From the IMG/VR virus record IMGVR_UViG_3300021964_006878, positions 1-64,000 of that record: a DNA stretch of 64,000 nucleotides; one strand, written 5' to 3'. Below are positions 54,461 to 60,471 of this stretch, one piece after another. Below the pieces are notes generated by a model that was not told the origin of the DNA, ran no database searches, and saw only the letters and a list, made by a program, of their open reading frames with translations. The position numbers and the translations under genes are program-made. Source of the stretch: a virus. Within the stretch, counting starts at the first letter, position 1. The number at the start of each line of letters is the position of its first letter.

Positions 54461-54523
54461 AATTTAATTATCTATAATAAAAGCACCCCTGTAAAGGAGT
54501 GCTGTGACGGTTTGGGAAGTGGT

Positions 54524-55087
54524 TTAGAGTGCTTCCAGATTTTCTACCAGTGTTTTGAGTTCTGTAAGTGTGGCATCATTCTTGAGAGTATTAGCCCTAT
54601 AACTTATTACCCAGATATTATCAGGAGTATATCCTTTTCCAGGAACTTTTTGATCTAAACTTGGATTTCTTGGGTCTGTCTTATCACTTGTAGATACTAA
54701 TGGTATTCCAAGTAAAGGACAAACTTCTGGTATTACAATATCATCCATAGAGATTGTAAAGGGTATACCTTTTTTCTTTGCTCTGTGTTGAGCATTATGA
54801 TACATCTTATATCTACGGTCGTCTCGTTTGAGAGTTCCTTCAGGTTTCTTTTTAGTTTTATTGAAGGTAATTGTAGTTTCTCTTCTAACACACCCACAAC
54901 TTGTAGTTCTTCCAGTCGTTAATCCACTTCTGTCACAAGTTTTTTCTCCACCACATTCACATTTACAAGTTGCATATACTCTGGTTTTTCCACTCTTTAA
55001 AATAACTTCTTCTTTTAAAACAGTAAGTTTTCCAAACTTCTCATCAACTAAAGCACCACAAGGTTTTGATTTATTATTTAATCCCAT
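54524..55087 (-). mobile_element. Free-standing HNH-like homing endonuclease downstream of psbD
   Basis: FGKLTVL...CKCECG...SCGC; CPLLGI...PSLDQKVPGKGYTPDNIWVISYRANTLKND; TATAAATA at 55113-55120. Confidence 0.85.
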
Positions 55088-55148
55088 GACACGAACTATG
55101 AATAACTATTATTATTTATATAATATCATACTCTGGGTCTTATGTAAA

Positions 55149-55176: not shown

Positions 55177-56235
55177 TCAAAGAGCATTTCCTCTTGGAAG
55201 GATCTCCTCAATTACAGGAAAGTTTTCGTGTGGTTGGTCAATAGTCATCATCCATTCACGGAGGCCATTGTTCAACAAAATATTTTTCGTGTAGAAAGTT
55301 TCGTATGAAGCGTCCTCTGCTGCTCTAATCTCTTGACTCACAAAATCATAGGCACGAAGATTAAAAGCAAGCCCAATGATCCCAATAGAGGAGACCCAAA
55401 GACCCATGACAGGAACAAAAAGCATAAGGAAATGAAGAAACCGCTTATTGCTAAACGCAATCCCGAAGATTTGCGACCAGAAACGGTTCGCAGTAACCAT
55501 CGAATAGGTCTCCTCCTCCTGAGTGGAATCGAACGCTTTAAATGTGTTTGCCTGTTCTCCATCTTCATACAATGTATTTTCTACTGTGACACCATGGATA
55601 GCACTGAGTAGTGCTCCTCCTAGTATACCAGCAACTCCCATCATATGGAAGGGGTTGAGGGTCCAGTTGTGGAAACCCTGAAGGAACAATAGGAATCTAA
55701 AGATTGCTGCTACCCCGAAACTAGGTGCAAAGAACCATGAAGACTGACCCAGTGGATAGATAAGGAATACACTGACAAAAACAGCAATAGGACCAGAGAA
55801 CGCAATAGCATTGTAAGGACGGATACCAATCAGGCGAGCAAGTTCAAACTGTCGAAGCATGAAACCAATGAGAGCAAAGGCTCCGTGGAGTGCCACAAAA
55901 TTCCAGAGTCCCCCAAGTTGGCACCAGCGTTGAAAGTCCCCTTGAGACTCAGGACCCCAAAGTAGCAAAAGAGAATGACCCATAGCGTCAGCAGGCGTCG
56001 AGACAGCTGCCGTAAGAAAGTTAGCACCCTCAAGATAGGAAGAAGCAAGACCATGGGTGTACCAACTCGTAACAAAAGATGTGCCAGTAAGCCAACCGCC
56101 AATGGCAAGATAAGCAGTGGGAAGAAGTAAGAGTCCAGACCAACCCACAAAGACAAAGCGATCCCGTTTAAGCCAGTCATCCAGGACATCAAACCATCCC
56201 CTCCCTTGTTGCTGTGATAATGTTGATGTTGTCAC
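55177..56235 (-). CDS. psbD: Photosystem II D2 protein
   Basis: [22 protein letters not shown]...PRGNAL; GTG start. Confidence 0.98.
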
Positions 56236-56498
56236 TATTTAAACCCTCCTTTTAGATTTTTTTGTTTTTTGTTTTTAATATCCAAAACTTCTATATGAGA
56301 TTTGAATACTGTTGGAAGATTAAACCATTCTTCTTGTGCTCGTTCATAACCCTCAAAGATTTTACTTTGACCGTCTGAATACACAAATCGGTAGTGATGT
56401 CTATCATATGGTGTGTCAGAAGTTTGAGCAAACCATTTCGGTAGTTCTGGTAAGACATCATCCAAGATTCTTTCTTCTGGATCTAATTTTCCATTCAT
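56235..56498 (-). CDS. Hypothetical protein between psbA and psbD
   Basis: [15 protein letters not shown]...SHIEVLD. Confidence 0.7.
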
Positions 56499-56586: not shown

Positions 56587-57666
56587 TCAACCAACTGTGG
56601 GTGCAATTAAGGCCACAGGTGTGGACTCTACTGCTGCCAAATCAAGTGGGAAGTTGTGTGCGTTTCTCTCGTGCATCACCTCCATACCAAGTCCTGCTCG
56701 GTTAAGAACGTCTGCCCAAGTGTTAAGAACTCTACCCTGTCCGTCGATAACAGACTGGTTGAAGTTAAATCCATTCAAATTGAATGCCATGGTGCTTACG
56801 CCCAGTGCGGTGAACCAGATACCAACAACAGGCCATGCAGCAAGGAAGAAGTGCAATGAGCGTGAGTTGTTGAATGAAGCGTATTGGAAGATCAAACGAC
56901 CAAAGTAACCGTGAGCGGCAACAATGTTGTATGTCTCTTCTTCTTGTCCGAACTTGTAACCATAGTTCTGTGACTCAGTTTCAGTCGTCTCACGGACGAG
57001 TGAAGATGTAACCAAAGAACCGTGCATCGCTGAGAACAATGAACCACCGAAGACACCAGCCACTCCAAGCATGTGGAAGGGGTGCATCAGGATGTTGTGC
57101 TCTGCTTGGAAGACAAGCATGTAGTTGAATGTACCACTGATACCCAAAGGCATCGCATCAGAGAATGAACCTTGACCGAAAGGATAGACGAGGAATACAG
57201 CAGATGCTGCTGCTACTGGAGCAGAGTATGCTACACAGATCCATGGACGCATACCTAAGCGGTAAGAAAGTTCCCACTCACGTCCCATATAAGCATAGAT
57301 GCCGATAAGGAAGTGGAAGACTACGAGTTGGAAAGGACCACCGTTATACAGCCACTCATCAAGAGATGCTGCTTCCCAGATGGGATAGAAGTGAAGACCA
57401 ATTGCGTTGGAGGATGGGACAACAGCACCAGAGATGATGTTGTTACCGTACATGAGTGAACCAGCAACTGGTTCGCGGATACCGTCAATATCGACGGGGG
57501 GTGCTGCTACAAAAGCAACGATGAAACAGATGGTTGCCGCCAACAGAGTTGGGATCATCAGCACACCAAACCAACCGACATAGAGACGATTGTTGGTAGA
57601 TGTAACCCACTCGCAGAATTGTTCCCACGAAGAGGTTGATTGTTGTCTAGAAAGAGTTGAAGCCAT
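56587..57666 (-). CDS. psbA: Photosystem II D1 protein
   Basis: [15 protein letters not shown]...[13 protein letters not shown]; no intron. Confidence 0.98.
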
Positions 57667-57679
57667 TGTTTTGAACAAA

Positions 57680-59517: not shown

Positions 59518-59955
59518 ATGAATACTATGATTCGTTGGTCTGTCCTAAGTGCGGTGGGTGTAAGTGTCACACTTGCTCCTGCCCTGTCGGTCCCCGTGGT
59601 CCCAAACTTCACACAGGGATCAATGACGAGCAGAACGGAAACAACTCAGAAGATAACTGAGACAATAAATAGCATGGATTATAACACTGGGTATCAGTAT
59701 TCTGCTACTGGTTCTGGTGTCACAGCATCTGGAAACCTTTCACCAGGAACAGGTGCTACAAATGTAACTATTAATGGAGTGACTTCATCATGGACTGGAG
59801 TAACAAGCAAACCGCAATTCACACAAACAGTACCAGGAGCAGCGTTTCAGTTCACAGAAACTTATCGAGGACCTGGTTTAAGCAACCAAACGATTATCCA
59901 AAGAGAAACCGAGGTTACAAGCATAACTGAAACAACCTCAATTTTTAGTCAGTGA
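59518..59955 (+). CDS. Secreted hypothetical protein (145 aa)
   Basis: Signal-like N-terminus; VPVVPNFTQGSMTS...TSIFSQ. Confidence 0.75.
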   Translation: MNTMIRWSVLSAVGVSVTLAPALSVPVVPNFTQGSMTSRTETTQKITETINSMDYNTGYQYSATGSGVTASGNLSPGTGATNVTINGVTSSWTGVTSKPQFTQTVPGAAFQFTETYRGPGLSNQTIIQRETEVTSITETTSIFSQ

Positions 59956-60471
59956 TTTCAGTGCCTCATAGAGCATTCCAATTTCCTCTATGGTGGCATT
60001 ATTCTTTATACGATTAGCACGAGCAGAAATGATCCAAACATTATCTTTTGTATAACCTTTGGTGCTATCAATCCTATCAACAGAAGGAGAACAATCTTGA
60101 TGAGTGTCTGATCCTGGTTGTAATTTAATACCAAGCACAGGACAAAACTCTGGGATTACAATATCATCCAGAACCAAACTACATTCTTCACCTCTTCTTC
60201 TGGCATTACGACGAGCATAGTTTAGCAGTCGTGTTTCATTCTTTTTAGTAGGATTAGCTCTGGGATGTGTGTAACCTGCTGACTTTCTACACCCACAACT
60301 TACTACTGGTTTCCTACCTCTAAATATATCAGAACTAATAAGTTTTTCATTATTACACTCGGAACACTTACACCAGTAAGTTCCTCTCTTATTTTTCTTG
60401 GTTGCCTCTTCATCCTTACGAATAACAAGAAGAGCACCAAATGTTTGTCCCGACAAATCTACTACTTTCAT
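59938..60471 (-). mobile_element. Free-standing HNH-like homing endonuclease inserted antisense in a + strand operon
   Basis: DLSGQTFG.L.V...WCKC...SCGC; CPVLGI...PSVDRIDSTKGYTKDNVWIISARANRIKNN; TATAAATA at 60503-60510. Confidence 0.87.

Follow-up and report, generated by a model that had tools for sequence, protein, structure and literature searches.

Recoded C-terminal tails of cyanophage D2 are linked to an HNH-like candidate homing endonuclease

Both free-standing homing endonucleases and marker exclusion are established phenomena, and cyanophages offer a precedent beside a photosystem II core gene: F-CphI, a free-standing homing endonuclease whose gene adjoins psbA of cyanophage S-PM2 (Zeng, Bonocora and Shub 2009; PMC6083498). 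F-CphI targets its neighbor psbA and spreads by intronless homing, and S-PM2 itself is immune because a group I intron splits the target site. More generally, free-standing phage endonucleases cleave a neighboring gene and co-convert the flanking DNA, as with the seg and mob genes of T4 (SegF/gene 56, SegG/gene 32, MobE/nrdB), of which the Mob enzymes are HNH nickases (PMC2988022). Phage psbD, which encodes the D2 protein, is a widespread auxiliary metabolic gene, and the usual assumption is that it copies the host gene faithfully. How does a cyanophage locus compare in which a candidate endonuclease gene lies directly after psbD, and the adjoining C-terminal tail of D2 departs from a sequence that is nearly invariant elsewhere? 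In the literature covered, which was incomplete, no paper was found that describes either this D2 tail or an endonuclease adjacent to psbD.

The stretch of DNA that was analysed, here called the window, is 64,000 nucleotides long and comprises positions 1-64,000 of the virus record IMGVR_UViG_3300021964_006878, an 85 kb IMG/VR record that is 43% complete. Its features are collected in Table 1, together with those of other contigs, which carry our L numbers. The gene order of the window is that of Synechococcus phage S-SKS1 (psbA, psbD, endonuclease, purC), the purC-like gene being found further downstream of the 187-aa endonuclease ORF. A second paralogue of the psbD-linked endonuclease family is present 5 kb away, with 39% identity and an E value of 2e-41 against the family profile.

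Table 1. Features of the psbD region of the window and of related loci (window positions unless another sequence is named)
Feature	Position	Strand	Remarks
psbA	56587-57678	minus	
DUF7441 gene	56235-56498	minus	
psbD, photosystem II D2, 352 aa	55177-56235	minus	Pfam PF00124, E 3.9e-71
Prochlorococcus-type D2 segment (V259I, W266F, F270L, L291F; KRFLHFLM)	55363-55461	minus	W266F and F270L shared
Variant tail block, codons 304-352 (RAAEDASY...LPRGNAL)	55180-55326	minus	Same peptide in S-SKS1 and contigs
Divergent residues 309-345 of the tail	55201-55311	minus	
Terminator-like hairpin directly 3' of psbD stop codon	55154-55171	minus	
Promoter-like region of endonuclease gene	55113-55148	minus	TTTACA-17-TATTAT and exact TATAAATA (55113-55120)
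Free-standing endonuclease gene, 187 aa	54524-55087	minus	PHROG 3322/1035/374
Terminator-like hairpin after endonuclease gene	54482-54503	minus	In repeated ACCACTTCC...GGGGTGCTTTT element bounding the cassette
Repeated terminator element, window copy	54482-54530	minus	
Repeated terminator element, other copies	L089:240-300; L005:6568-6620; L094		Two copies in L094
Second endonuclease paralogue	59950-60465	minus	
Variant-tail psbD with S-SKS1-type endonuclease	L004:2250-3757		IMGVR_UViG_3300005512_000786
psbD body replaced by unrelated ORF, with tail remnant	L005:5758-6570		IMGVR_UViG_3300031566_000395, also L091
Overlong psbD matches	L110:51-1549; L118:65-1629; L164:1-1398; L168:2-1517; KJ019062.1 159375-160571		

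The D2 protein of the window matches the Photo_RC profile PF00124 with 239.8 bits over residues 28-315, a match that covers the reaction-center fold. The first-pass annotation had presented the C terminus as a divergent form of a nearly invariant sequence; the C-terminal sequence that it quoted is found exactly in the psbD translation, and near-invariance elsewhere is borne out by an alignment of 120 D2 cluster representatives, from plants to cyanobacteria, picked by their likeness to the window tail. The changes are P309A, E310S, F311Y, E323N, A327E, A330M, P331T, I332, V340P, F341V, P342I and V345I, and most of them are absent from the 120 representatives: E323N, A327E, A330M, V340P/F341V/P342I (PVI at 340-342) and V345I occur in none, and P309A, E310S and F311Y in four, one and three, respectively. 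Set against a ≥90% consensus built from 65 full-length D2 representatives, the whole window protein departs at eight positions, and because all eight lie within 309-345, the earlier statement that the rest of D2 looks canonical holds. The residue numbering used there is likewise right, with P309A, E310S, F311Y and E323N present and E312 and K317 kept; T316 and N318 are also retained. The KRFLHFLM motif, which the same annotation had listed as a further deviation and which in its standard numbering places a His at 268, is present in the window D2 but is not unusual, since 12 of 111 D2 representatives carry the Prochlorococcus-type combination of W266F and F270L.

Within the phage data, S-SKS1 was the only sharer of the tail among 421 phage records with D2 (95% identity, versus approximately 85% for the rest). 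A word-indexed protein search yielded nothing closely related to the tail; clustering at 90% identity masks tail variants behind canonical representatives, and DNA pattern scans replaced the clustered protein search for finding tail carriers. These scans detected the tail in two contigs from IMG/VR and eight from metagenomes, and the identical tail peptide is present in S-SKS1, L086, L092, L093, L089, L087 and L005. The tail motif had no match in cellular genomes (185,579 species, one genome each), and a looser NNGxREWM pattern matched only non-cyanobacterial genomes of that set, by chance. Among the data searched, the variant is seen in phage sequence alone. Over the last 49 codons, 11 tail carriers differ by up to 25 nucleotides but by 0-3 residues, with a dN/dS of approximately 0-0.05 and a dS of up to 1.6; L004 and L088, for example, have 19 nucleotide differences and no amino acid difference in the tail. 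Because synonymous differences are so many and residue differences so few, an artefactual tail or a decaying gene is excluded, and the variant tail is a real, functional, selectively maintained and old psbD allele. The first-pass annotation had itself named an assembly artefact as a possible explanation, and the incompleteness of the metagenomic record might be taken to favor an assembly or sequencing artefact or a degenerating pseudogene. The probability of such an explanation is negligible: the same tail recurs in a cultured isolate, S-SKS1 (HQ633071), and in approximately 10 independent contigs from different projects, and the psbD reading frame of the window is intact, with dN/dS approximately 0.02.

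At the nucleotide level the psbD gene of the window is a mosaic of at least three sources. Nucleotides 301-690 are 99-100% identical to S-RIM44, a phage with a canonical D2 tail and no endonuclease, and the last 120 nucleotides are 98% identical to S-SKS1 and approximately 67% identical to S-RIM44. Recombination breakpoint analysis, which the first-pass annotation had proposed, was performed as a maximum chi-square test on psbD and gave a permutation p < 0.0005. Between the window and L086, the spacer is 100% identical, as is the 5' part of the endonuclease gene; the tail is 99% identical, and identity drops to 93% across psbD nucleotides 691-900 and to only 84% across nucleotides 301-690. Identity that is highest at the inserted gene and falls outward is the co-conversion signature that would be expected from homing. 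Tail, spacer and endonuclease gene together constitute a cassette carried on different psbD bodies, and the tail is found on bodies 77-99% identical to that of the window, in differing gene neighborhoods. Its sub-blocks 309-311, 323-327 and 330-345 combine differently in L004, L088, L090 and L094, and gene-conversion tracts are therefore short. In the S-SKS1-like contig L005 an unrelated 215-aa ORF has taken the place of the whole psbD body, and only psbD codons 304-352 (49 codons) survive, as a non-coding remnant. As a consequence of this history for users of such data, psbD 3' sequences are poor phylogenetic markers.

Several side observations touch on the same region. The KRFLHFLM segment is a Prochlorococcus-like patch inside an otherwise Synechococcus-phage-like psbD, another recombination patch, and over this stretch the window is unlike both S-SKS1 and S-RIM44 (84-88% identity). 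In L004 the variant-tail psbD and an S-SKS1-type endonuclease gene lie beside a gnd-like (6-phosphogluconate dehydrogenase) gene, which is upstream, and a small beta-rich ORF, a neighborhood unlike those of the window and S-SKS1. In L005 a different, 91-aa HNH gene follows the tail remnant. The psbD match in several viral contigs and one ACG-2014d isolate is 140-500 nucleotides longer than the 1059-nucleotide gene, which suggests insertions or introns inside psbD; an Rfam search of the four contigs with a match 340-500 nucleotides too long returned no known intron family.

The 187-aa protein encoded after psbD matches PHROG 3322 (E 2.7e-31), 1035 and 374, which are annotated as HNH or endonuclease. 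Two domains are predicted: a beta-barrel at the N terminus, which bears a CxC...SCGC motif, and an HNH-like domain at the C terminus; the AlphaFold model has a pLDDT of 81. In structural comparisons the C-terminal domain (residues 82-187) comes closest to the HNH enzyme PacI, with a Foldseek probability of 0.99 and E 0.04, a match that is modest by other measures (TM 0.38/0.48; VIA Z 6.8 over 101 residues at 15% identity); Gme HNH (Z 4.5) and Cas9 HNH (Z 4.0) come next, and every one of these scores falls short of a secure match. A Pfam search with the protein found no family, even at E ≤ 10, and a sequence search of the PDB no match. Residues D145, N157, N166 and K169 are invariant in the family, in which the usual Asp-His pair is absent, D145 being followed by Q, K or R instead of His. 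With this residue pattern and only moderate fold matches, the protein is therefore described as HNH-like rather than as a proven HNH member, and its nuclease activity is putative. The family is itself mosaic, as seen in an alignment of L006-L041, L090, L092 and L095: a near-invariant C-terminal domain is joined to at least four types of N-terminal domain and three types of middle region in mixed combinations (e.g., L014).

Between its conserved neighbors, the endonuclease gene forms its own predicted transcription unit, consisting of a terminator, TATAAATA with a sigma-70-like site, the ORF and a second terminator. The TATAAATA motif, which matches the T4 late-promoter consensus, is also present in the S-SKS1 spacer. 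The ACCACTTCC...GGGGTGCTTTT element that bounds the cassette directly follows psbD in the endonuclease-free contigs L089, L005 and L094. More widely, a repeated terminator element of the form ACCACTTCC...GGGGTG(C/G)TTTTTTATT, often followed by GTATAAT, is found at gene-cassette borders in these phages and may serve as a site of recombination through which modules are exchanged, in the manner of the promoter-stem-loop cassettes known from T4-type phages.

How general is the link between the endonuclease and an altered tail? Endonuclease homologues are encoded directly after psbD, 21-149 nucleotides past the stop codon, in at least 31 distinct IMG/VR viral contigs. These loci were gathered via the endonuclease, endonuclease-free comparison loci were seeded independently via D2, and the IMG/VR survey of psbD-bearing viral contigs covered the best 80. 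Co-occurrence of altered tails with the endonuclease, a check advocated in the first-pass annotation, was scored at the 43 invariant tail positions of D2. At least one of these is changed at 28/31 endonuclease-bearing but at 10/74 endonuclease-free loci (Fisher p = 6e-14; p = 3e-6 with unique tails); eight of the ten deviating endonuclease-free loci carry just the known A327N/S polymorphism, and the remaining 64 are canonical. The annotation had also considered that the same substitutions might be common in psbD genes free of the endonuclease, and they are not: heavily recoded tails were found at 2 of the 74 loci of this unbiased sample, one of them with an endonuclease-gene remnant and the other followed by a terminator and a gene that also occur at endonuclease-bearing loci. 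A tree was computed from psbD codons 21-295; on it the endonuclease state changes at least 10 times, and in nine independent pairs on this psbD-body tree, seven or eight differ in the same direction and none in the opposite one (sign test p ~0.016). A profile of deviations along the protein, based on pan-D2 invariant positions, gives 6.8 per 100 such positions in residues 301-352 of endonuclease-linked D2 and ≤0.8 elsewhere, compared with 0.7 and ≤0.3 in endonuclease-free D2. Universally conserved tail residues thus have approximately 10-fold more changes in endonuclease-carrying viral contigs. Changes recur at positions 307, 309-311, 313-316, 319, 322-323, 335-337, 341, 343 and 345, and residues 312, 317 and the last seven are never changed in endonuclease-linked tails. 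The window allele is among the most heavily recoded of this large family.

Some loci have a variant tail and no endonuclease gene. In L094, L089, L088 and L172 the gene is absent from the same site and the flanking DNA is shared, a presence/absence polymorphism. After psbD, L094 has a remnant of the last endonuclease codons, ...CTGGAAGCCCTCTAA (LEAL*); L087 retains the 3' end of an L092-type endonuclease gene; in L089, L005 and L088 the sequence normally found 3' of the endonuclease gene directly adjoins the psbD stop codon; and L172, with a different extreme tail, has its terminator and downstream gene in common with the endonuclease-bearing contigs L034-L036. These loci look like losses after invasion, while an ancestral empty site is an alternative that L089, L005 and L088 would also fit. 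The endonuclease C terminus EAL* was considered as a leftover copy of the psbD NAL* and rejected, many family members ending differently. EAL* may be native to the endonuclease family, and its similarity to NAL* may have provided the microhomology by which the gene was precisely deleted from L089, L005 and L088.

What might explain the recoding of so conserved a protein segment next to an endonuclease gene? The reading that we favor, and consider probable, is that the endonuclease gene spreads by intronless homing and that the psbD 3' allele co-converted with it is immune to cleavage. The mobile cassette would consist of the psbD 3' end as left arm, the spacer with its own promoter, and the free-standing HNH-like endonuclease gene. 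During mixed infection, the endonuclease would cut or nick the canonical psbD 3' end of a phage lacking it, and repair would copy the donor endonuclease gene and co-convert the adjacent psbD codons. The donor's own psbD would have to escape cutting. Recognition by homing enzymes tends to involve the constrained codon positions of the target, and immunity would therefore require amino acid changes at otherwise invariant residues; such changes would be confined to positions that D2 tolerates, with E312 and K317 kept. The link of the endonuclease with non-canonical tails suggests that the cleavage site lies inside the psbD tail and that the variant is immune. Escape recoding driven by the endonuclease was one of two explanations offered in the first-pass annotation. 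Such endonuclease-linked recoding agrees with the whole of the comparative evidence (cassette-like co-transfer, a strong and phylogenetically robust link of this endonuclease family with non-canonical tails, and deletion scars in endonuclease-free carriers), while cleavage of canonical psbD and immunity of the variant are proposed. A search for the target site by per-nucleotide conservation, with and without the endonuclease, gave no site that could be named, third-codon lineage differences being a confounder. This outcome weakens the homing account, as do the canonical tails of three endonuclease-linked loci and the presence of the window tail beside endonucleases that are just 46-52% identical to the enzyme of the window.

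An unlikely alternative is that the tail changes have no role in immunity and reflect hitchhiking or mutagenic repair. The endonuclease target could be elsewhere, for instance at the psbD stop/downstream junction, which its own insertion would disrupt, and mildly deleterious or neutral tail changes would then build up by linkage to a driving element; or the changes could arise from repeated break repair and spread by co-conversion. Three of the 31 endonuclease-linked loci have fully canonical tails, which speaks for such an origin, although these loci also mean that immunity is possible by other routes, such as synonymous changes or disruption of the site by insertion. The position of the insertion points, close behind the psbD stop codon, is similarly in its favor, as is the lack of a clean mapping of endonuclease subtype (N-terminal or middle domain) onto substitution position, where only a weak trend is seen: changes at 307-323 accompany the window-type middle domain, and those at 335-345 are more frequent with the other types. 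Moreover, the window tail adjoins three endonuclease subtypes, including enzymes just 46-52% identical to that of the window (in S-SKS1 and L092), and also occurs at loci without the endonuclease, so that its association is not exclusive to one enzyme. Against hitchhiking, the same substitutions arise repeatedly across differing tails (F311Y/W, E307S, T316S, H336G, E343D, F341L), the last seven codons, which are nearest to the insertion, never change, and the variant state is under strong purifying selection.

It is improbable, in our estimation, that the tail is an adaptive modification of the donor side, altering photosystem II function or assembly during infection (e.g., proton or chloride exit, PsbO contact or turnover) and spread by positive selection with the endonuclease as a mere vehicle. 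The first-pass annotation had given a functionally modified donor side as its other explanation, and it comes out as the weaker one. The variant peptide is conserved across divergent phage backgrounds and persists after loss of the endonuclease, and E310 belongs to a network that includes PsbO residues and is located at the broad-channel exit (bioRxiv 10.1101/2021.01.29.428861), both of which would suit an adaptive role. However, mutations of D2-E307, D308, E310 and E323 are reported to leave the FTIR difference spectra of the OEC unmodified; the same source places E323 at the surface and not in the network, and it assigns functional importance to E312 and K317 (bioRxiv 10.1101/2021.01.29.428861). 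With E312, T316, K317 and N318 kept in the window, recoding therefore avoids residues known to matter, an avoidance that fits tolerated escape better than purposeful donor-side redesign. In addition, the substitutions in other endonuclease-linked tails are unrelated and share no direction, and endonuclease-free phages, with the same infection physiology, mostly have canonical tails. Quite improbable, too, is a neutral lineage variant of S-SKS1-like phages, acquired by ordinary homologous recombination and only coincidentally beside an endonuclease gene. The synteny of the window with S-SKS1 and the frequency of psbD recombination mosaics among cyanophages agree with it, but the divergent psbD bodies and the different neighborhoods in which the tail is found, such as that of L004 with gnd upstream, do not, nor does an endonuclease-tail link that holds across some 10 independent changes of endonuclease state. 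All deviations of the window at conserved D2 positions, furthermore, abut the endonuclease gene.

Escape by recoding through intronless homing, if it is what happened, may be part of something larger. A tentative but possible picture is an ocean-wide arms race between diverse HNH-like homing endonucleases and the cyanophage psbD 3' end, in which invariant D2 residues would have been recoded repeatedly and the window allele would be a multi-resistant end state, resistant to several subtypes. If so, these tails would be a natural deep-mutagenesis record of the D2 lumenal residues that water oxidation can do without. Dozens of natural variants of the D2 tail exist, at least one of them under purifying selection, and they indicate replaceable lumenal residues near the Cl-1/broad channel and the PsbO interface. 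Protein evolution at the D2 C terminus may be driven by a selfish endonuclease and not by photosynthetic function, and the locus is a candidate case of homing-endonuclease target escape by non-synonymous recoding, for which S-SKS1 is a cultured carrier.

Compared with canonical D2, the window protein is a full-length member of the Photo_RC family that has His 268, E312 and K317 and no deviation at a conserved position outside 309-345; it differs by P309A, E310S, F311Y, E323N, A327E, A330M, P331T, V340P, F341V, P342I and V345I. The candidate enzyme has its best structural match, a modest one, among the HNH (beta-beta-alpha-metal) nucleases, namely PacI over residues 82-187, but it has Asp-Gln/Lys/Arg in place of Asp-His and matches no Pfam HNH family. 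The locus is reminiscent of the T4 seg and mob systems, whose intergenic genes are present or absent among related phages, and in which cleavage within a neighboring conserved gene leads to co-conversion of flanks, mosaics and marker exclusion (PMC2988022). Unlike in those systems, the co-converted flank in the window has 12-13 amino acid replacements at residues invariant from cyanobacteria to plants, dozens of alternative recoded alleles are present in the population, and the activity of the enzyme is putative. Homology of the window enzyme to F-CphI (S-PM2 ORF177) was considered and rejected, BLASTP giving E 1.9 and no similarity; F-CphI has an Endo VII motif, and the window enzyme belongs to another protein family. 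The two are nonetheless alike in being encoded by free-standing endonuclease genes directly downstream of a photosystem II core gene of a marine cyanophage, and the psbD locus would be a second, unrelated endonuclease system linked to such a gene, beside F-CphI and psbA. Whereas immunity in S-PM2 is conferred by an intron in the target, the psbD locus of the window has no intron, and it is the neighboring coding sequence that is recoded at the amino acid level.
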